Assembly (NCBI GenBank): GCA_036339735.1
Contig: JAYZAL010000077.1
Location: 1 to 64,000 of the forward strand
Direction of reading: 5' to 3'
DNA length: 64,000 nucleotides
Source of the DNA: Candidatus Poribacteria bacterium
GTDB lineage: Bacteria; Poribacteria; WGA-4E; UBA9662
Part shown: piece by piece, positions 12,497-53,912 of the stretch
Position numbering within the stretch: the first letter of the stretch is position 1
How the letters are laid out: each line of letters begins with the position of its first letter
Translations under genes and position numbers: made by a program
Notes under the pieces: model-generated
Database searches by the model: none
What the model was told of the DNA's origin: nothing
What the model saw: the letters and a program-made list of their open reading frames with translations, nothing else

Positions 12497-13546
12497 ATGA
12501 TTTTGACTTTGGAGCAAATCCATCAAATCGTTGGTGGAGAAATTTTTGGTGATTCACTGTTAGAAATTAGTGGCATTTCGAGTCTCCAAGAAGCTATTTC
12601 TGGACAGATGACATTTCTGGCAAATTCGAAATACCGGTCAGAAGTTGATAAAACAGCGGCTTCTGCTATTATTTTGGGGCAGGATGTCAGCCTAAGTGAT
12701 ATAGCGGTTAAAAATGGAGTTTCGGTTGATGATCCATACTATGCCTTTTTGCAAACCCACCAAGCTTTTGCTAATGCTTCTGCGGAACTACCAACGGGTA
12801 TTGATCCTACCGCTAAAGTCGGTGAAGATGTTATTTTAGATAAAAACGTTTCAATTCAAGCTCATTGTATAATTGAAAACGGTGTCAAAATTGGAGAAGG
12901 CACAATTATTTGGCCAAACACCTACGTTGGACCAAAAGTTGAGATCGGCTCCCGTGTTCGTATTCGTTCCAATGTATCTATCGGGGAACGAGTCAAGATC
13001 GGGGATCGAACTATTATTCAAAATGGCGCGGTGATTGGTAGTGATGGATTTGGTTTTGCAACCTTTCAAGGACAGCATCATAAAATACCTCAGATTGGTA
13101 CTGTAGTTATCGGAGATGATGTTGAGATTGGTGCAAATACTACAATAGACCGTGCGACTTTAACCGAAACATCCACTGTTATCGGTTCCGGAACTAAAAT
13201 TGATAATTTAGTTCAAGTCGCTCATAACGTCAAAATTGGACGGCACTGCCGTATTGCGGCTCAGGTTGGAATTTCAGGTAGCACCCAAATTGGCGACTAC
13301 GTAACAATAGCTGGACAAGTTGGGATTGCTGGGCATTTGACTATCGGCAGTAATAATACAGTTCTAGCCAAGTCTGGTGTGACAAAAAATTTAGCCGATA
13401 ATATGGGTATGGTCTCAGGTTTCCCTGCACGCCTACACAGAGAGGAAATGAAAGATCAAGCTAAAAGTCGGCGGTTAGGTCATTTTCTAGATGAATTACA
13501 AGAATTGAAACAGAAAATGGCAGACATTGACTCTATACTAAACTAG
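12497..13546 (+). CDS. lpxD: UDP-3-O-acyl-glucosamine N-acyltransferase
   Basis: Hexapeptide repeats, 'IGSDGFGF', 'KIPQIG', 'GANTTIDRA', '[12 protein letters not shown]'. Confidence 0.97.
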
Positions 13547-13585: not shown

Positions 13586-14587
13586 ATGTCTGGTTTGCAA
13601 ATTACAGCGATCTCGTTTGTTAAATGGTTTGACTACGTGGCAGTTACACGTCCGATGTTATTGCTACCGGTCTGGACTCAAGTGATATTGGGTTACTACC
13701 ACGCCACTTGGTCTTCTAGGGTACAGTTGGTCGTTTGGTGGCCGCCCGTACGACTTGTTGAAACACTAGTACTATACAGTTGCTTAGCTGGTGGCTGCTA
13801 CATCGTGAATCAAATTTCCGACAGTGAAACTGATTCAGTCAACCAAAAGCTTTATTTGGTAGCCGATGGACACGTCGGGGTTTTTGCTGTTACTATCCAA
13901 GCTCTTTGTCTAATTGTCTGTGGTTTGAGTTGGGCCGTCTGGCGATTCGGAGATAATTTAGCTTTTGTTGTTTTAACTTTCGGCTCGGTCTTATTCGGTC
14001 TGGCTTATTCGCTACCACCTATTCGACTGAAAGGAAAACCAATTCTGGATCTGTTTTCTAATGCAATTGGTTATGGTGGATTTGCTTTCTGGGTGGGTTG
14101 GTCATCTTCGGCAATCTTTTCTTGGTCAGCTGTCGAGCAAGCCTTACCATACGTGCTATGTGTAGCCGCAGCTTTTGTCAATACCACTATTCCTGACATG
14201 GTAGGGGATCGAGCCAGTGGGGATTGGACAACTAGTGTCTGGTTAGGGGAACGTAAAGCAGGTTGGTTAAGCTTAGTTATTTTAGTCGCATCTATTGTAT
14301 GCTCATACTATTTAAAAAGCTGGTTTGCATTTACTACTTCTCTAATTTGTTTACCTTTTTTTGTCCGTATGAATCTGCTGATTGAAACCCAATTGAAGCA
14401 AAAGTTAGATACCAGTCAGCAAAGATATTTGATAACAAAAGCGACCATTCTAACGTCGCGTGTTGGCATTCTAGTCTTTTCAATTATCGTAGGGATACTA
14501 GTACCGATCTATTTAGTACTGTTTGCCTGCACTATTTTCGTATTACGTTGGTATTATGCTGAACGATTCGGAATTAAATATCCATAG
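13586..14587 (+). CDS. UbiA-family membrane prenyltransferase (divergent)
   Basis: N-terminal 'TRP', Asp-rich motifs 'NQISDSETDSVN' and 'IPDMVGD', 'YSLPPIRLKGKP', many TM segments. Confidence 0.85.
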   Translation: MSGLQITAISFVKWFDYVAVTRPMLLLPVWTQVILGYYHATWSSRVQLVVWWPPVRLVETLVLYSCLAGGCYIVNQISDSETDSVNQKLYLVADGHVGVFAVTIQALCLIVCGLSWAVWRFGDNLAFVVLTFGSVLFGLAYSLPPIRLKGKPILDLFSNAIGYGGFAFWVGWSSSAIFSWSAVEQALPYVLCVAAAFVNTTIPDMVGDRASGDWTTSVWLGERKAGWLSLVILVASIVCSYYLKSWFAFTTSLICLPFFVRMNLLIETQLKQKLDTSQQRYLITKATILTSRVGILVFSIIVGILVPIYLVLFACTIFVLRWYYAERFGIKYP

Positions 14588-15452
14588 TAGTCAGGTCAAA
14601 ATACGGGACTTGATCGAGCTTAGCCGCCCTCTAAACGGGCTGCTCGCGTTTGTTTCAGTGTGGATAGGTGCCTATATGTCGGGTGGATCAATCTCTATTC
14701 AGGCGACCTTCTTAGTTGCAACGGCTGCTGTTTTAGCTTTGTCAGCTGGAAACAGCTTAAATGACTATTGTGACGTCGAAATAGACCGAATTAATAAACC
14801 TGAGCGGCCTATTCCTTCAGGGCGGATTAGTCGAAGGCAAGCATTATTATTTTCCATACTGTTACTGGGACTGAGTGTTGTGATCGGTTTTCAAGTGAAT
14901 TCAGGTTCTCTGATAACTATTGTTTCTGTCTGTTGGTTACTCTCTATATATGCTTTCTGGTTGAAGCGCTTACCACTAATCGGTAATTTAGTCGTTGGAA
15001 TCTTGACTGCACTAACCTTCGTCGCCGGTGGAATAGCAAATGAAGTAGTTCAAGGTACTCTTCCGCTATCTGTTTTTGCATTTCTATTTACAACTGCTAG
15101 AGAGATTGTAAAAGACATGGAAGACCAGGTCGGGGACCAGGCCGTATTTGCCAAGACTTTACCTTTAATTTTAGGTGAGAAATCAGCTGTGTGGGTCGTT
15201 TTATGTTTGATTGCAAGTGGAATTGCGTTTAGTCCAGTCCCATACTTAATTTACGGGTATTCTGGGCTGTATCTTTTTATAATGATCTTTGGAGTCGACT
15301 TAGTTATGGCCTATTTGGGCATTCGTTTATTTCTAAAACCAAGCCAATCCAATTGTGCTAAGATCCAGAAGTGGATGAAATGGAATATTTTTATTGGGTT
15401 ACTAGCCGTCTGTTTAGGTAAACCTTCCCGGTTACTTCCCGTTGGCGTATGA
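14556..15452 (+). CDS. Digeranylgeranylglyceryl phosphate (DGGGP) synthase-like UbiA prenyltransferase
   Basis: 'LSRPLN', 'GNSLNDYCDVEIDRINKPERPIPSGRIS', 'LKRLPLIGNLVV', 'AREIVKDMEDQVGD' match the archaeal DGGGPS pattern. The start is uncertain (14523, 14556 or later). Confidence 0.85.
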   Translation: MLNDSELNIHSSQVKIRDLIELSRPLNGLLAFVSVWIGAYMSGGSISIQATFLVATAAVLALSAGNSLNDYCDVEIDRINKPERPIPSGRISRRQALLFSILLLGLSVVIGFQVNSGSLITIVSVCWLLSIYAFWLKRLPLIGNLVVGILTALTFVAGGIANEVVQGTLPLSVFAFLFTTAREIVKDMEDQVGDQAVFAKTLPLILGEKSAVWVVLCLIASGIAFSPVPYLIYGYSGLYLFIMIFGVDLVMAYLGIRLFLKPSQSNCAKIQKWMKWNIFIGLLAVCLGKPSRLLPVGV

Positions 15453-15618
15453 ATTCAATTTTTCGAACCAAAATTCATGGTAATGAAAATAACATTCTGT
15501 GTTTATTTTCGTTCTTCTGATTCTACTAAAGAAAAGATAGATTGATTCAAATGGAAGCGATCAAATCTGATTTTGCAAAGTTATATTTTTTTAGAATAAT
15601 AAAAAAAGGTACTGTTAC

Positions 15619-15837
15619 ATGATTCATATTTATGACGAGCTCTGTAGTTATTGTGGTTCGTGCATCGCGGTGTGCCCTGAAAATATTATTGATTTAATTG
15701 ATCTCCATTTAGAGATTGATCAACCTAAGTGTACACACTGTGCCAAGTGTATAAAAGGTTGTCCCGTCGGTGCTTTGGCCATGGAACATCGTGATAAAAT
15801 TTACTATCCTGAATACGAAGGTCGAGGTTTATTCTAG
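15619..15837 (+). CDS. 2x[4Fe-4S] dicluster ferredoxin
   Basis: [12 protein letters not shown] and [12 protein letters not shown]. Its TAG stop overlaps the GTG start of the reductase by one base. Confidence 0.93.
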
Positions 15838-17030
15838 TGATTCATTCCGAATATGATGTCATTGTCGTGGGTGCTGGTCCTGGTGGTTCCATAGCTGCAA
15901 AAGTTGCAGCTTCTAACGGGTTTCGTACTTTAGTCTTAGAAAAAAGGCAAGAGATCGGCACCCCCGTTCGCTGAGCAGAGGGAATTAGCACAGAGGCTCT
16001 GTGCGCATTTATTCAACCTGACCCTAGTTGGGTTTCACAACCGATCAACGGAGCTAGAATTTTTTCTCCAAACGAAACGCCTGTTCAGATGGATGTAGCT
16101 GATGCCGGTTACGTTCTGGAACGTAAAGTTTTTGATCGAACCTTAACGGAAATGGCAGGTAACGAAGGAGCCGATATAATTGTTAAAGCTCGAGCCACTA
16201 ATGTAACTAAAGATGGTAAGGGATCTGTCAATGGAATAACCTTTCGATATGCTGGACGAGATTATACGTCTAAAGCTAAAGTTGTTATTGCTGCCGATGG
16301 TATCGAATCCAAGGTCGGTAGATGGGCAGGTATTGATACTACACATGATCTTCGTGATATTGATGTTTGTGCTCAGTACTTAATCTCTAAAATTGACATT
16401 GAACCTGAGTATTGTGATTTTTATGTTGGTCGAGAAATTGCTCCTCGAGGATATATCTGGGTCTTTCCCAAAGGTCCGGATATCGCTAATGTTGGTGTCG
16501 GAATTGGAGGAACAGTATCGGGGAAAGGTGGTAAATTGGCTATTGACTATCTAAACGAGTTTGTTAAACGAAAATTTCCAGATGGAAAAATTCTAGGCCA
16601 AGTGGTAGGTGCAGTGCCCGTTGGGGACAGTTTGCCTCAATTAGTAGCTGATGGAATCCTCATAATTGGGGATGCTGCACACCACAGTGACCCAATTTCA
16701 GGTGGCGGAATTGCCAATGCTATGTACTCTGGCATGTTTGCCGCAGAGACTGCCGTTGATTGCCTAAACAAAGGAGACGTTTCCGCACAAGCCTTAAAGG
16801 TTTATGAAGAACGCTGGGATAAAGAAGTCGGTAAGCATTTCAAGCGTGTTTGCAGGATTCGAGATGAAGCTCTGAAATTTAGCGATGAAATGTTCGACCG
16901 TTGTGCGGCTGTTCTCAATCGAATGCCACCTGAAAAAGTCAATATGCCAACCATTTTTAAAACTGTACTAAAACATCAACCTAGGTTGCTTCTCGAACTT
17001 CGCCACTTAATCTTAGCCGGTTGGGTTTAA
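15837..17030 (+). CDS. Geranylgeranyl/digeranylgeranylglycerophospholipid reductase, probable selenoprotein (Sec46)
   Basis: GTG 15837 is in frame with the 16089 ORF and gives [18 protein letters not shown]...[11 protein letters not shown][TGA 15972-15974]AEGIS. Later motifs are 'IAADG', '[10 protein letters not shown]', 'IGDAA...PISGGGI'. 397 aa if the TGA is decoded. Confidence 0.9.
15988..16004 (+). promoter_or_regulatory. Candidate bacterial SECIS hairpin of the reductase
   Basis: GCACAGA-GGC-TCTGTGC is a perfect 7-bp stem. Its G-led loop starts 20 nt after the in-frame TGA. Confidence 0.7.
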
Positions 17031-17048
17031 AGTACTCAGCTTACAATC

Positions 17049-17780
17049 ATGACCATAATTGAGCAACTTGAGTCCATTATTGGACAATACCGAGCAGGAT
17101 ATCTGGTATTAGTGGATCCTGACCGGATCAAACTAAAAGAAATTCCTAGCTTTGCTCAACGAGCCCAATCTGCTGGTGTTGATGGAGTTCTGCTGGGTGG
17201 CAGTTTTCTGACTAACGATCTAAGTATTATTGCTGAAACCTTGAAAAAGTCTACGGATCTGCCCATAATTTTGTTTCCAGGTTCAGCGATGCAAGTTACC
17301 CCACATGCTGATGCTATTCTTTTCATGAGTTTACTTAGTGGTCGGAATGCCAACTATTTGATTGGAGAACAAGTTAAAGCCGCTCCAATGATCCAACGAG
17401 TTGGACTTGAAACTATTTCCACCGGTTATATACTGATTGATGGTGGTCAGCAGACAGCTGTCAGTTTCATTAGTAATACAACACCAATCCCTAATGACAA
17501 AGCAGAAATCGCTTGGGCCCATGCGCTTGCTGCTCAGTACCTTGGCATGAAGTTGATCTATCTAGAAGCTGGTAGTGGTGCCAAAAAACCTGTGCCGGAT
17601 CAAATAATCCATTCTGTTAAGAAACAAGTGACCGTCCCGATTATCGTTGGTGGGGGAATTCGATCGCCTGAAGTGGCTCGAAAAAAGGTTGCCGCCGGAG
17701 CCCAATTTGTTGTCACGGGAAATGTGATTGAGCAAGATCCATCATTGATGGCAGCCTTCGCCGACGCAATCCATAGTTAA
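17049..17780 (+). CDS. Geranylgeranylglyceryl phosphate (GGGP) synthase, group II
   Basis: 'LVDPD', 'LLGGS', 'ILFPG', 'FMSLLSGRNANYLIGEQV', 'YLEAGSGA', 'IVGGGIR', 'VVTGN' are the phosphoglycerol geranylgeranyltransferase TIM-barrel motifs. Confidence 0.93.
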   Translation: MTIIEQLESIIGQYRAGYLVLVDPDRIKLKEIPSFAQRAQSAGVDGVLLGGSFLTNDLSIIAETLKKSTDLPIILFPGSAMQVTPHADAILFMSLLSGRNANYLIGEQVKAAPMIQRVGLETISTGYILIDGGQQTAVSFISNTTPIPNDKAEIAWAHALAAQYLGMKLIYLEAGSGAKKPVPDQIIHSVKKQVTVPIIVGGGIRSPEVARKKVAAGAQFVVTGNVIEQDPSLMAAFADAIHS

Positions 17781-19868: not shown

Positions 19869-20678
19869 ATGAGTACTCAAGAGATCAAAGTGCCACCTTT
19901 GTCATCTGACGAACTGGATCTAGCGTGTCAGACATTATCAGAGGTTGGATACGTAACTTTTGAACAGGCTATACCATTAGAGATAGTTGAAAAAATCAAG
20001 GATGCATTCGAAGCTGGTCATAATACAGGTCAACAAGATACTGATTTCCTAACTTATCCTTTCTTGGATCCTCGTATCATAAATAACCCTATAGCCATCT
20101 CAATAATTGAAAAAATCATGGGAACGGGTTTTTTTTCTTCCCTTCCGTACGGCTTTAACTCCACACAGCGCTCGTCTCGATACTACAAAAATAGTCTTAA
20201 ACAGTGGATTCACCGAGATAGCGGGCACCTCTTTCCTCAAATGAGAGCTGCATTACCTGTAACCAAGATTGTGGTCAATGTTACTCTCACTGATTTTACT
20301 ATCGAAAATGGGTGCACAGAAATTTGGCCGGGGTCTCACTTAATAATTGACCCTATCAAATCTCCAACAACAGAAGAAGAAAAATTGTTCCAGAACTATC
20401 ATGTTTGTAGCGAAGAAAGAGGTGCAGAGTTACCATCTGTCCGGATGGTAATGCCTGCGGGATCTGTCGTGGTTCGTGATATGAGGTGTTGGCACCGAGC
20501 CATGCCCAATTATACCGATCGCACTCGCACTATGATTGCTATGGTTTATTTCAGTCGTATCCATAATGCATTAGGAGACCATGGTATTTTTAGGACCAAA
20601 ATTTCAAATGACACTTGGCAACACATCCCCGAACGCGCTCAACATATCTACCGCTTCCACCCAATCAGTTACAAATAG
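19869..20678 (+). CDS. Phytanoyl-CoA dioxygenase (PhyH) family Fe(II)/2OG enzyme
   Basis: 'IHRD' (HxD), 'ENGCTEIWPGSH', 'WHRA', 'RTM'. Confidence 0.88.
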   Translation: MSTQEIKVPPLSSDELDLACQTLSEVGYVTFEQAIPLEIVEKIKDAFEAGHNTGQQDTDFLTYPFLDPRIINNPIAISIIEKIMGTGFFSSLPYGFNSTQRSSRYYKNSLKQWIHRDSGHLFPQMRAALPVTKIVVNVTLTDFTIENGCTEIWPGSHLIIDPIKSPTTEEEKLFQNYHVCSEERGAELPSVRMVMPAGSVVVRDMRCWHRAMPNYTDRTRTMIAMVYFSRIHNALGDHGIFRTKISNDTWQHIPERAQHIYRFHPISYK

Positions 20679-31722: not shown

Positions 31723-32478
31723 TTAAGATCGAGCTGTTTCATTGATTTGCTGAACCGAGTCATTGAAGGCTTGGATAGTCTTTTGATAGCCTTGGAAATT
31801 TCTTAAAGTTTCAATCATCTGTACCATTTGGTGAACAGGATTCGCGTTAGAACCTTCCAAATAGCCTTGTAGAATATTGAATTCACTGGTGTTTCCTTCT
31901 GATGAATCAGTAGTTTGGTAAAGGCTATTCCCTTTTTGTGTCAAGCTATCAGAAGGAAAGTCTCTTACCATCAACTGGTTGACCATTTCTTCACCATCAA
32001 AAATTTCCCCTTTATTAGTAATCCGTAAATTTACAATTTGGCCCATTTGGATGGGCTGTTCATCAGGATCCAAAATCGGTTGTCCATTTTGTGTGACAAG
32101 ATTCCCTTGATCGTCAAGGGTAAAAGAACCATTTCTCGTATAGGAAACTGTACCATCATGATTTAAAACCCCAAAAAAGCCCTTACCTTGGATGGCTAAA
32201 TCCAGTGGTTGACTAGTTTCACGGATTGGCCCATCTGCTAAATTGAGACGGTAGTTAGCAACAGTCGCCGTTGATAACTTTGGGTTGTTGCTACTTGGAG
32301 CCAAGCCAGTTTCTTTATCAGGAATAGATTGGTTAAGATAATCCTTGAAAGCGGTTAAATGCAGGTGGCTCTTTTTGAAACCGGCCGAATTTAAGTTAGC
32401 TAGATTATTAGCTATCATGTCCATTCGCATTGATTCATAAACCATGCCTTGTGTTGCTAAATATGTTCCTTTGTTCAT
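31723..32478 (-). CDS. flgF: Flagellar proximal rod protein FlgF
   Basis: 'ANNLANLNSAGFK', 'LDLAIQGKGFF', 'YTRNGSF', 'GYLEGSNAN'; immediately upstream of flgG. Confidence 0.85.
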   Translation of the reverse strand: MNKGTYLATQGMVYESMRMDMIANNLANLNSAGFKKSHLHLTAFKDYLNQSIPDKETGLAPSSNNPKLSTATVANYRLNLADGPIRETSQPLDLAIQGKGFFGVLNHDGTVSYTRNGSFTLDDQGNLVTQNGQPILDPDEQPIQMGQIVNLRITNKGEIFDGEEMVNQLMVRDFPSDSLTQKGNSLYQTTDSSEGNTSEFNILQGYLEGSNANPVHQMVQMIETLRNFQGYQKTIQAFNDSVQQINETARS

Positions 32479-32548
32479 ATTGTCTAGTACCTCGCTTTGA
32501 TGAATCTCTTTGGTCTCACCTGATTGGGATCAGCTACTGTTTGAGATA

Positions 32549-32563
32549 GCAAACCCTATGCCA
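32549..32563 (-). promoter_or_regulatory. Sigma54 -24/-12 promoter upstream of flgF
   Basis: The minus strand reads TGGCAT-AGGGT-TTGC with exact spacing. Confidence 0.8.
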
Positions 32564-32618
32564 ATTATAAAAATGTCATCCTTTGCAAAAATAATTCTGA
32601 TTTGATAAAATCGGAACC

Positions 32619-35384
32619 ATGATAAAATCTGAGCGTAGTTGTCTGCTATTAGTGATTTTATGCTCTTGTTTGGTTCTAGTGAATTGTTCTTGGTTGAATC
32701 GCTCTGAGTCAGGCCCCTCTCCCCAACCTATCGATCCGTTTGTCTCGCGATACCAAACTTGGCAAAAACTTGTAGAACTCGGTAATCAAGCTTATCAAAA
32801 CCAAGATTTAGTTTTGGCATTAGAGCAGTACAAGGAAGCAATTGAACTGAGACCGGATCAGTCTCCGCCGCTCTTACGTATAGCCCAAATCTACTATCAG
32901 CTACAAGAATACGAAAAAGCAAAAACTTTTTTTCATAAGTACTTGGATTTAAACCCTAGAGACCGTAATGCTTACAACTATTTGGGGTATGTTTATGAAA
33001 TATTACAAGACTATAAATCAGCAGCTGAACAATTTGAAGCTAGCCTCAAGCTTTATGATCAAGATCTTTATGCTCTTAATCATCTTGGGCTAGCGTATAA
33101 ACAATTGGGTAGATATAAGGAGGCGGAAGGTGTGTTAAGACAAGCATTATTGATTGATCCGAACTGCCAACAGAGTGATAATCGCAACCTTCATAATTAT
33201 TTAGCCTTAATCTACCAGGAAACGAAGCAGGTAGGTTCTGCAATAGCTGAGTTAAGAGAATCGATTCGTCTTTTCCCGAATGATATATGGGCCAGAACAC
33301 AGGTGGCGAACCTTTACGAAGCTGCTTATCGTATTTACGAAGCCCAACTGCAATACACAGAAATTCTGAGAATTGAGCCTGATAACCTATTGGCAAAATC
33401 TCGCTTGCAAGCCTTGGACCAAGCCACACCGAAAAAGCCTTTAGCCATTGTTTCACCAGTTGACCTGATCGAAATTGATACTCAGTCTATAATTGAAAAT
33501 GCACCGACAGCTGAAGATTATCCAAACGATGATGCAATTATTCTACTAAATCAGTTTTGTCATGAAATCACAGCAGAAGGAAAGTCAAGATATACATCGC
33601 ATAAAATTATCAAGATTTTCAATCAACGAGGTATCCAAAAACACGATGATCTGGCAATTCCTTATAATCCTAACTCACAGCATATTACAGTTAATTCTGC
33701 ACGTACTATACTACCCAATGGCACAATAGTAGAACCTGCCGAAGATGCTTACAATGACGTGACTCCACCAGGGCAGCTAACCTTCAATCTCTACTCTGAT
33801 GGACTATGGAAGGTTATATCTATGCCTGCTTTGAAAGCTGGTGTTTGCATCGAGTATAAGGTTTCGTTGGAAGACATGGTACCCTCGGGAGCTGATCAGT
33901 GGTTTTGGGGTAGCTATACTTTCCAATCTACTGACCCAACTTTACAGACGAATTATGCACTTCGTCTGTATGGAGATAAACAGTTTCGTTGGAAGGCAGT
34001 TAATTGCGAACTAGACCCCGAAATTATGATTGAAGGTGAAACAAAAACCTACCTTTGGCATTACGGCGAGACACCCTCCATTCGTGAATCTATTGGTCAA
34101 TCTAATACCTCTGAATTAGCTGCTCAGTTTCGTTTTTCATCGGTCAATTCTTGGGATGCTATCAGTGCTTGGTATGCTGACTTAGCCCGGGATCGTTACA
34201 CCAGTAGTCAAGAAATGGATGAATTGGCTCGAGATTTAACCCAATCGGTAAATACTTCAACAGAAAAAATTCATCAGTTATACAATTTTGTGGCAAGCCA
34301 AATTCGTTATGTTAGTATCCAACTGGGACAAGGAGCATACCAACCGACGTCTGCTGACCAGGTTTTAATAAAAAGGTATGGGGACTGTAAAGATAAAAGT
34401 ACACTACTGATTTCGTTATTAGCGAGCATTGGTATTTCGGCCTTCCCTGCTCTGATGAGTCCATCTCCTTATGATCCTATTGACCTTGACCTTCCATCCG
34501 TTGGCCAGTTTAGCCATTTAATTGTTGCTATTCCCATTGCTGAAAATGGCTTGAACAAACGGCAAAATATGGACAGCGACTATTTGTGGTTGGATCCTAC
34601 AGCAAGCAGTTGCCCATTTGGAATCTTACCTACTAGTAACCAAGGCCGAACCGCGTTATTGGTCAAAAATAAAACAGCTACCTTTGTGAAAATTCCGAAT
34701 TCTCTTCCGGAAAACAACAGGCTGAAAATTGAAACTGACCTCCTTGTTCAAACTGATGGATCATTCAATGGTAAAATGTCTATTCAGCCTATCGGGCAAT
34801 ATGGCATAGACTATCGCCTTACATACCGTGACATTCAGGTTTCATCACTGGATGAGGCTTTTAGTCGTGAACTAAGTCGAAGTTTTTCTGGCATTATGAT
34901 AAAACAGCATCGAGTTTCTGACTTGAGAGATCTTGACCAACCAGTTAAAATTCACCTAGAGTTTCGGGCGGATTCAATGCTCCAGTCAATTGATAATCAA
35001 CACCAGTTACTCTATTTTGACGGAGCAGATTTTGCCGATTATGCTGATATTTTTGCTAGTCCAGAACGAATCTATGCATTGGATCTTAGCCACCCGATTC
35101 TTGTCGAAAAAACTACTCGCATCCAACTACCGACAGGTTGGGTACCATTGAAATTACCAGATGGGAAAGACACACATTCAGATGTCTTTTCATCCGAACA
35201 ATCTTTCGGCCAACTAAATGTGGAAGTTACTTACAATAAAACCGAAATTATCATCGATCTAACATTGGAAGTTGTTAATCCTATTATTGCTCCTGAGATC
35301 TACCCGATGGCACGCACGTTTTTTCGTTCCCTTATTGCCAGAGACCAGTTAGTTACCACGCTGAAAAAAGTCCCAGTTTCTTGA
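32619..35384 (+). CDS. TPR + DUF3857-like + transglutaminase-like domain protein, probable lipoprotein
   Basis: Signal ending 'LVNC', TPR repeats, intact Cys-His-Asp motifs 'YGDCKDKSTLL', 'FSHLIV', 'WLDPT'. Confidence 0.85.
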   Translation: MIKSERSCLLLVILCSCLVLVNCSWLNRSESGPSPQPIDPFVSRYQTWQKLVELGNQAYQNQDLVLALEQYKEAIELRPDQSPPLLRIAQIYYQLQEYEKAKTFFHKYLDLNPRDRNAYNYLGYVYEILQDYKSAAEQFEASLKLYDQDLYALNHLGLAYKQLGRYKEAEGVLRQALLIDPNCQQSDNRNLHNYLALIYQETKQVGSAIAELRESIRLFPNDIWARTQVANLYEAAYRIYEAQLQYTEILRIEPDNLLAKSRLQALDQATPKKPLAIVSPVDLIEIDTQSIIENAPTAEDYPNDDAIILLNQFCHEITAEGKSRYTSHKIIKIFNQRGIQKHDDLAIPYNPNSQHITVNSARTILPNGTIVEPAEDAYNDVTPPGQLTFNLYSDGLWKVISMPALKAGVCIEYKVSLEDMVPSGADQWFWGSYTFQSTDPTLQTNYALRLYGDKQFRWKAVNCELDPEIMIEGETKTYLWHYGETPSIRESIGQSNTSELAAQFRFSSVNSWDAISAWYADLARDRYTSSQEMDELARDLTQSVNTSTEKIHQLYNFVASQIRYVSIQLGQGAYQPTSADQVLIKRYGDCKDKSTLLISLLASIGISAFPALMSPSPYDPIDLDLPSVGQFSHLIVAIPIAENGLNKRQNMDSDYLWLDPTASSCPFGILPTSNQGRTALLVKNKTATFVKIPNSLPENNRLKIETDLLVQTDGSFNGKMSIQPIGQYGIDYRLTYRDIQVSSLDEAFSRELSRSFSGIMIKQHRVSDLRDLDQPVKIHLEFRADSMLQSIDNQHQLLYFDGADFADYADIFASPERIYALDLSHPILVEKTTRIQLPTGWVPLKLPDGKDTHSDVFSSEQSFGQLNVEVTYNKTEIIIDLTLEVVNPIIAPEIYPMARTFFRSLIARDQLVTTLKKVPVS

Positions 35385-53681: not shown

Positions 53682-53912
53682 ATGAATCTAAGGATCGAAT
53701 ACTGTACAGCTTGAAATTATTTGCCACGCGCCGTCAGTTTGGCGGACAAATTACTTGGCCATTATAAAACACAAATAGCTTCTCTTACACTGGTTCCTGG
53801 GGGTGGTGGTTGCTTTGAGGTTTCACGTGATAGTGAAATTTTATACTCGAAACTTTCTACCAAGGAATTCCCCAGCCTGACTCAAATTACCGACGCTCTT
53901 GGTAGTTCTTAG
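53682..53912 (+). CDS. Rdx (SelW/SelT/SelH-like) selenoprotein with CxxU motif
   Basis: SD GAGGG; ATG 53682 gives MNLRIEYCTA[TGA 53712-53714]NYLPRAVSLA...LVPGGGGCFEV...LYSK...FP, in frame with the 53721 ORF. 76 aa. Confidence 0.93.
53719..53751 (+). promoter_or_regulatory. Candidate SECIS hairpin of the Rdx selenoprotein
   Basis: Lower stem ATTTG/CAAAT and upper stem CGCC/GGCG around GTCAGTTT, directly 3' of the TGA. Confidence 0.55.

Follow-up and report, generated by a model that had tools for sequence, protein, structure and literature searches.

The window analysed here, a 64,000-nucleotide stretch of contig JAYZAL010000077.1, comes from a metagenome-assembled genome (MAG), 92% complete, of a marine Candidatus Poribacteria bacterium. 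Just downstream of a ferredoxin gene, it carries a gene of the geranylgeranyl reductase (GGR) family whose frame is crossed by one TGA, at codon 46. This TGA is predicted to encode selenocysteine (Sec), and it is followed by a hairpin resembling a bacterial Sec insertion sequence (SECIS). An earlier note on this DNA had proposed a selenoenzyme that saturates isoprenoid lipid chains. The features are listed in Table 1.

Table 1. Features of the window, and one metagenomic comparison locus (last row), with position, strand and basis.
Feature	Position	Strand	Basis or remark
Sec-containing GGR-family flavoenzyme (predicted)	15837..17030	+	397 codons, GTG start, TAA stop; read-through translation, profiles, PDB 3oz2, structure model
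UGA codon 46, predicted Sec codon, at the flavin-proximal catalytic Cys position	15972..15974	+	conserved in the order, Cys elsewhere
SECIS-like hairpin, 7-bp stem, GGC apical loop at 15995-15997	15988..16004	+	folding, covariation, absent in Cys forms
2x[4Fe-4S] ferredoxin, 72 aa, likely electron donor	15619..15837	+	Pfam Fer4_7, Fer4
Prenylglyceryl phosphate synthase, geranylgeranylglyceryl phosphate synthase (GGGPS)/PcrB family	17049..17780	+	PcrB 159.6, TIGR01769 226.4, NF003198 295.2 bits; both NCBIfam models over cut-off
UbiA-family prenyltransferase, digeranylgeranylglyceryl phosphate synthase (DGGGPS)-like	14523..15452	+	Pfam UbiA 164.7 bits; NF009523 230.4, NF009521 221.9 bits, both below cut-offs
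Second UbiA-family prenyltransferase	13586..14587	+	Pfam UbiA 69 bits
LpxD	12497-13546		neighbour upstream of the UbiA pair
PhyH (phytanoyl-CoA dioxygenase) family	19869-20678	+	two genes downstream of the lipid cluster
SelT/SelW/SelH-family (SelW-like) selenoprotein, CxxU	53682-53912	+	TIGR02174 52 bits, cut-off 34.2
GGR of contig L164, FCB/KSB1-like	L164:94-1287	+	TGA 241-243 at the catalytic Cys column; contig of 1675 nt

The gene, its family and its active site

Under the standard code, the list of open reading frames (ORFs) splits one frame into two pieces, 15837..15974 (45 aa, GTG start) and 16089..17030 (313 aa, ATG start). When TGA is read as U, a single GGR product of 397 residues results, with its only U at codon 46. 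The ORF list and the read-through translation thus bear out the proposals that the gene extends back to the GTG, coupled to the ferredoxin stop, and that the TGA is the sole interruption of its 397 codons. The ferredoxin ORF ends with TAG at 15835-15837, overlapping the GTG (15837-15839) by one base, and GAGG can be read 9 nt upstream of this start. The 313-aa form lacks both the GxGxxG FAD-binding motif and the catalytic residue. It has been deposited in public protein collections (P0002, 99% identity, 79% coverage), together with many other shortened GGR entries of 283-346 aa, the kind of truncation that the earlier note had anticipated from annotation pipelines. With dozens of such entries, the annotation error at Sec-GGR genes is systematic.

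The protein matches Pfam GGR_cat (PF22578, 96.1 bits against a cut-off of 27) and NCBIfam TIGR02032 (GG-red-SF, 226.6 bits against 158.8). Its closest match of known structure is Thermoplasma acidophilum GGR (TaGGR, Ta0516, PDB 3oz2; E = 2.1e-80 over residues 5-392, 38% identity by Foldseek). A full-length AlphaFold model (pLDDT 87.3, pTM 0.88) is also most similar to 3oz2 among PDB entries, with a TM-score of 0.88 over 396 columns, followed by entries of Sulfolobus acidocaldarius GGR (SaGGR; 3atq/4opc) with TM-scores of 0.81-0.82. The motifs reported for GGRs, GxGxxG, RxxxD, YxWxFP, LxGD and GGG (PMC10821996, PMC6309074), are all found: GAGPGG at 12-17, R96-D100, YIWVFP at Y206-P211, LIIGD ending at D279, and G289-G291. 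All are invariant among 23 aligned proteins.

Residue 46 aligns with a Cys in 3oz2 and likewise in 3atq, so that the flavin-proximal column holds UGA here instead of Cys. This places it, as the earlier note had stated, at Cys47 of the Sulfolobus enzyme, and by alignment also at Cys45 of TaGGR. Fold, length, motifs and catalytic column are therefore shared with the two archaeal enzymes, and the differences are the predicted Sec in place of their Cys and the bacterial host. This Cys is described as lying directly behind the isoalloxazine ring, as conserved in all active GGRs and as essential in SaGGR, with a role in electron transfer or flavin modulation being speculated (PMC6309074, PMC10821996). 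The exchange of Cys for Sec is chemically conservative and is no argument against homology. Compared with thiols, selenols have a higher acidity and nucleophilicity.

Distribution of UGA and cysteine, and the downstream hairpin

The gene was found in 30 of 61 related genomes, and all 29 full-length orthologues (65-100% identity) have exactly one in-frame TGA. The thirtieth copy (G011/L047) is frameshifted, yet keeps the TGA at the column. The codon stands in the context EKRxEIGxPxR-TGA-AEG (the PVR-TGA-AEG motif) in 30 of 30 loci of the order. In a survey of the phylum, 56 of 176 genomes carry a GGR gene. Within the window's order the gene is present in 42 of 159 genomes; codon 46 is covered in 39 of these, each with one TGA, and the remaining three are the broken G011 copy and two fragments outside codon 46. 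The TGA form spans four families of the order. The gene is also found in 14 of the 17 poribacterial genomes from outside the order, in no case with an internal stop, and the column holds a Cys codon in 12 of 12 (of the 14 with the gene; TGT in eight, TGC in four). An additional in-frame TAG, at a conserved Trp about 19 codons past the Sec codon, is seen in L089 (also G135); this copy and the frameshifted L047 (G011) may be decaying genes or assembly errors.

The same division is seen in contigs sampled as one genome per species. TGA is present in 19 loci whose titles name Poribacteria (in one case just "uncultured bacterium"), and the remaining 60 loci hold 63 distinct gene copies, every one with TGT or TGC at the Sec column. 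These Cys copies come from Methanosarcinales, Methanomicrobiales, Thermoplasmata, Cloacimonadota, Bacteroidota, Calditrichota, Ignavibacteriales and others, with one fragment unreadable by motif. Cys is also invariant at this column in 23 full-length database proteins of 49-65% identity, several of them named Ca. Poribacteria. Identity to the window protein is 57-66% for the nearest Cys forms. The named records that encode the closest relatives, with protein identities reaching 99%, bear the title Candidatus Poribacteria bacterium. The alternation of Cys and TGA is therefore clean and follows phylogeny, and with 39 genomes of the order carrying it, the TGA is not peculiar to one strain among Cys-type homologues.

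In a maximum likelihood (ML) tree of 110 rows, made with a quick search and SH-aLRT support only, unrooted and drawn at the midpoint, all 30 Sec rows of Poribacteria fall into a single clade (SH-aLRT 99), which is nested within successive Cys-type poribacterial branches. Thus, for any root outside the Sec clade, the Sec state is derived, and the tree suggests a single origin of the Sec form, out of a Cys form, in the ancestor of one order of Poribacteria. The clade of Poribacteria as a whole falls with GGRs of bacteria of the Fibrobacteres-Chlorobi-Bacteroidetes (FCB) group, apart from the archaeal clade (SH-aLRT 95).

Codon differences among 27 distinct orthologue sequences show that both sides of the TGA are translated and under purifying selection. 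In codons 4-45, variable sites number 18, 10 and 42 (of 42) at codon positions 1, 2 and 3, with 7147 synonymous and 1905 non-synonymous codon differences. In codons 47-84, which the annotated ATG start skips, the corresponding figures are 20, 14 and 35 (of 38), with 4783 synonymous and 3273 non-synonymous differences. Of the window's 46 long open frames, six end in TGA, and the GGR gene itself uses TGG five times and TGA once; thus a reassigned genetic code is not the explanation. Of the other read-through candidates in the window, the only one with a TGA well inside its frame (31723-32727, minus strand) was rejected: the TGA there is a plain upstream stop, because the rod-protein-like sequence begins after it.

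An assembly error, with TGC or TGT in the underlying reads, had been named as one way in which the proposal could fail. Two DNA runs, each from a different study (X4, X5), have contigs across 15972-15974 that show no difference there. A 355-nt contig from a metatranscriptome library (X15), spanning 15817-16171, has the TGA intact; it crosses the ferredoxin/GGR junction, the TGA and the annotated ATG with five differences, all at third codon positions. Independent contigs from both DNA studies and the RNA library therefore carry the TGA.

Folding confirms the hairpin that had been described, of 7 bp with a G-led loop 20 nt past the TGA. Its arms are 15988-15994 and 15998-16004, the stem starts 14 nt after the UGA, and the fold has -9.8 kcal/mol (z = -2.98 against shuffles for a 24-nt piece). 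Pairing is kept in 96.7% of 210 cells from 30 distinct sequences. Three pairs show compensatory changes (CG/UA, AU/GC and CG/AU/UA; 16 cells), and neither the paired percentage nor the covariation score was equalled in any of 500 shuffles. When the 3' arm is slid, pairing falls to 9.5-59.5%. RNAalifold keeps five of the seven pairs of the stem (the five lower), and the first loop base, G, is invariant. In the same register, all 30 Sec forms have six or seven of the seven pairs, whereas 63 Cys forms have a mean of 3.1 and the 12 Cys-type Poribacteria have one to four; mean local folding energies are -9.1 kcal/mol for Sec forms and -1.8 kcal/mol for Cys forms. The hairpin thus covaries in the TGA forms and is absent from the Cys forms. 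Taken alone it is modest evidence, and its weight stems from the comparison across relatives.

Bacterial SECIS elements are stem-loops that closely follow the UGA within the coding sequence, and their consensus is described as having G at loop position 1 or 2 (PMC13582414). The window hairpin fits in its position and in the G at the first loop base, as in elements of the fdhF type and the bSECISearch consensus, but differs in that a short 7-bp upper stem and a 3-nt loop are conserved without a conserved lower stem. The earlier note was right to apply bacterial SECIS logic, the host being a bacterium that carries a cluster of lipid genes of archaeal type. RNAfold draws a longer SECIS for the window, including a lower stem, but this was dropped, as it is not conserved among relatives.

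A metagenome scan for the motif with TGA returned 36 stretches: 11 chance matches, 24 poribacterial-type GGRs (69.8-99.2% identity) and one further sequence, L164. This is an otherwise open GGR of 397 codons, with an identity of only 44% to the window protein and about 55% to Cys forms of the Bacteroidota/Cytophagia type, and it is placed inside the FCB clade in the ML tree. A 6-bp hairpin starts at the same offset from its TGA as the window hairpin does. In the protein collection, nearly all of its relatives are full-length proteins, and the lineage is represented by a single contig. A protein entry of 347 aa (P0205), known from that entry alone, starts four residues past the column of the Sec and might represent another TGA form. 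Whether L164 is a real, independent Sec-GGR lineage outside Poribacteria is in our judgement about evenly poised.

Probable decoding as selenocysteine and the rival readings

The genome has selA (579.2 bits), selB (362.3 bits) and selD (359 bits), all above their profile cut-offs. The selD gene in turn codes for a selenoprotein: a TGA interrupts its frame in VSCAG-U-ASK (G000 C70, TGA at about 27545) and is followed by a hairpin. The second CxxU gene that had been pointed out in the window is confirmed by TIGR02174; this SelW-like gene has 76 codons, a TGA at 53712-53714 and a hairpin from about 15 nt past it. The hairpins of selD and of the SelW-like gene lie at offsets similar to that of the GGR gene. 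The expectation of Sec machinery thus held for selA, selB and selD. No tRNA-Sec was found in the window by ARAGORN, or in the MAG by RF01852, ARAGORN or blastn-short with the tRNA-Sec of relatives; the best RF01852 match (45.2 bits) is a tRNA-Ser and was rejected. All ten relatives tested have a tRNA-Sec (67.6-78.3 bits); five are complete genomes of the order, and the other five belong to the window's own family, both genomes of the same genus among them. ARAGORN reports tRNA-SeC (tca) in five of five relatives' loci checked.

From the TGA/Cys pattern, the covarying hairpin and the Sec machinery, which together strongly support the proposed replacement of the redox Cys by Sec, the gene is judged to be genuine and conserved, a predicted Sec variant of a well-known enzyme family, and it is widely mis-annotated. 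Very probably, 15837-17030 encodes a full-length functional flavoenzyme of the GGR family in which UGA at codon 46 is decoded as Sec. SelB with Sec-tRNA(Sec) would be recruited by the hairpin inside the coding sequence, in the bacterial manner, and Sec46 would occupy the position of the essential Cys behind the FAD ring of the archaeal enzymes. Electrons would pass from the presumably co-transcribed ferredoxin to FAD, and the reduced flavin would saturate C=C bonds of geranylgeranyl chains, as expected from relatives. Judging by context, the likeliest substrates would be isoprenoid glycerol ether lipids, produced by the GGGPS and the UbiA prenyltransferases that are encoded alongside.

Several findings weigh against this reading. 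The single-sequence folding signal is modest (z = -1.79 for a 43-nt piece), RNAalifold finds no conserved lower stem and only the upper stem is conserved, and an Rfam scan of the whole window at gathering thresholds gives no match. Transcription cannot be proved by the RNA-library contig. The gene is patchy in the window's order, where the three largest sampled genera are nearly without it (1 of 20, 5 of 65 and 8 of 40 genomes), against 14 of 17 genomes outside the order. The tRNA-Sec is missing from the MAG itself; this is treated as non-assembly, uninformative and not contrary, because the MAG is 92% complete with only 34 tRNAs by ARAGORN, many tRNAs being lacking. The case for Sec is also wholly comparative, and selenium incorporation at codon 46 is inferred, as are the electron donor, the substrate and the part played by Sec in the chemistry.

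The UGA might instead be read through as Cys by a SelB-dependent tRNA(ReC)-type tRNA, or as Trp or Cys by near-cognate suppression, giving an ordinary Cys-type (or Trp-type) GGR. tRNA(ReC)-like tRNAs are reported to decode UGA as Cys given a SECIS, and to occur in some Sec-utilising phyla (PMC13582414). However, the ten relatives all have a canonical tRNA-SeC with a TCA anticodon, the genome has selA and a Sec-type selD, and a Cys codon is only one base away, yet TGA has been retained across four families of the order; on these grounds we consider this reading improbable. Gene callers do give the ORFs expected if the TGA were a real stop, in a pseudogene or misassembly or in a gene for a 313-aa product from ATG 16089, perhaps with a 45-aa peptide, and the many shortened database entries and the extra damage in two relatives (the G011 frameshift and the G135/L089 TAG) could be taken in the same sense. 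But a TGA conserved in 39 genomes at 65-100% protein identity, mainly synonymous change both before it and in the codons skipped by the ATG start, agreement among independent assemblies, a short form without GxGxxG and catalytic residue, and a full-length model that superposes on 3oz2 over 396 columns already contradict a real stop, which we regard as very improbable indeed.

The lipid gene cluster and relation to known enzymes

The order UbiA-UbiA-ferredoxin-GGR-GGGPS (13586-17780) is kept in most poribacterial loci, and in most homologous loci, both archaeal and bacterial, the gene immediately preceding that of the GGR codes for a ferredoxin. A UbiA gene of the 13586..14587 type is also found beside the ferredoxin-GGR pair in some FCB loci. 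In some Poribacteria, ferredoxin and GGR are fused (P0099, P0107; 465-485 aa, of the Cys type and sharing about 50% identity with the window protein), which supports a functional partnership of the two. The Methanosarcina acetivorans GGR is reported to require the ferredoxin encoded beside it (Isobe et al. 2014, as cited in PMC10821996), and in that genome, as in the window, the ferredoxin gene is immediately upstream. Methanosarcinales enzymes are the closest archaeal homologues (43-49% identity); unlike the window gene, they have Cys (TGT) and no hairpin after the codon. The Cys-type GGRs of Ca. Cloacimonetes and other FCB bacteria (PMC7852524), and those of the other poribacterial orders, belong to the same family and show the same ferredoxin-GGR pairing, with TGT or TGC where the window has TGA and a hairpin.

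The location of the gene in this conserved cluster suggests that its product probably saturates isoprenoid ether lipids, and saturation of isoprenoid glycerol ethers, inferred from gene context, is the best-supported guess at the substrate, one that we hold to be fairly probable. Of the claim for a selenoenzyme saturating isoprenoid lipid chains, the Sec part is thus supported by comparison, and the substrate is indicated by context. On the other side, the lipid product and even the ether-lipid nature of the substrate are deduced from neighbouring genes, and the protein might be a Sec enzyme acting on another isoprenoid, such as a polyprenyl quinone side chain, a polyprenol or dolichol-like carrier, free geranylgeranyl diphosphate or a heptaprenylglyceryl-type lipid as in Bacillales. 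GGR paralogues are described as taking varied prenyl substrates (PMC10821996, PMC6309074), and Bacillales PcrB-family enzymes as making a C35 monoether (PMC9179154). The protein misses the cut-offs of three equivalog models for digeranylgeranylglycerophospholipid reductase (NF041160, the TaGGR equivalog, 304.9 bits against 780; NF041080, 179.4 against 580; NF041385, 114.5 against 700). CarS (PF01864) was not found in the genome, and no clear glycerol 1-phosphate (G1P) dehydrogenase was identified, the Fe-ADH_2 matches being an aroB and two weak G1P-dehydrogenase-like genes (G000 C88 and C87; 114 bits against a cut-off of 413).

However, the equivalog models are lineage-specific (Thermoplasmatales, Halobacteria and others), so that missing their cut-offs limits the name rather than the likely activity. 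The gene lies between DGGGPS-like UbiA and GGGPS genes in a cluster conserved across Poribacteria, and the GGGPS is over the cut-off of TIGR01769, an equivalog for phosphoglycerol geranylgeranyltransferase. In Ca. Cloacimonetes, CarS is likewise reported as undetected, and GGGPS and DGGGPS from that set still yielded archaeal-type lipid in Escherichia coli (PMC7852524). Another isoprenoid substrate is in our view unlikely, though well short of negligible.

No report of a Sec-GGR came up in full-text literature searches that paired GGR or digeranylgeranylglycerophospholipid reductase with terms for selenoproteins, selenocysteine and SECIS, in agreement with the earlier note, which knew of no such established selenoprotein family. 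The word "geranylgeranyl" is absent from the main texts of deep-Sep (PMC12013277), a 2026 selenoproteome review including a family table (PMC13188914), BSepDB (PMC13326102) and the GOS study (PMC2398784), whose supplementary family tables could list GGR. No NCBIfam selenoprotein model is among the 25 best of the 79 families matched by the protein. Literature searches likewise found no description of an isoprenoid ether-lipid cluster in Poribacteria; one of the papers covered is confined to elb/agps-type pathways and contains neither "isoprenoid" nor "GGGP". Catalogued flavoprotein selenoproteins, TIGR03385 (CoA-disulfide-reductase type) and NF049943 (a type III sulfide:quinone reductase subtype) (PMC13188914), resemble the GGR in being FAD enzymes with Sec for a redox-relevant Cys and a bacterial SECIS. 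They belong to other families (pyridine nucleotide-disulfide and sulfide:quinone reductase types), with Sec in thiol or sulfur chemistry, whereas in the GGR the lone flavin-adjacent Cys of an alkene reductase would be replaced, a residue that is neither a member of a thiol redox pair nor a metal ligand. The gene would add a selenoprotein family in isoprenoid lipid saturation, where no report of a selenoenzyme was found. Having close Cys relatives, at 57-66% identity, this natural Sec variant also lends itself readily to a comparison of Sec, Cys and Ser, and a poribacterial order with a conserved GGGPS/UbiA/ferredoxin/GGR cluster extends archaeal-type lipid genes beyond the FCB group.

Tentatively, and with more doubt than confidence, these observations could be joined in a reading in which Sec46 is a direct chemical partner, as proton donor or transient partner of the flavin, in a ferredoxin-driven reduction of unactivated C=C bonds, rather than a mere tuning of the flavin, and in which the same switch recurred in the L164 lineage. 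If so, the enzyme might be faster or more resistant to oxidation, as would suit oxic seawater, and a poribacterial order would depend on selenium for making saturated archaeal-type isoprenoid ether lipids. An independent change from Cys to Sec in the FCB/KSB1-like L164 would then imply a recurrent selective advantage at one position.

Downstream of the GGGPS gene lie a gene for a secreted Ig/cadherin-like protein and then the PhyH-family dioxygenase gene. A PhyH gene is also found downstream in a close relative (L048), and its product might act on saturated isoprenoid chains.

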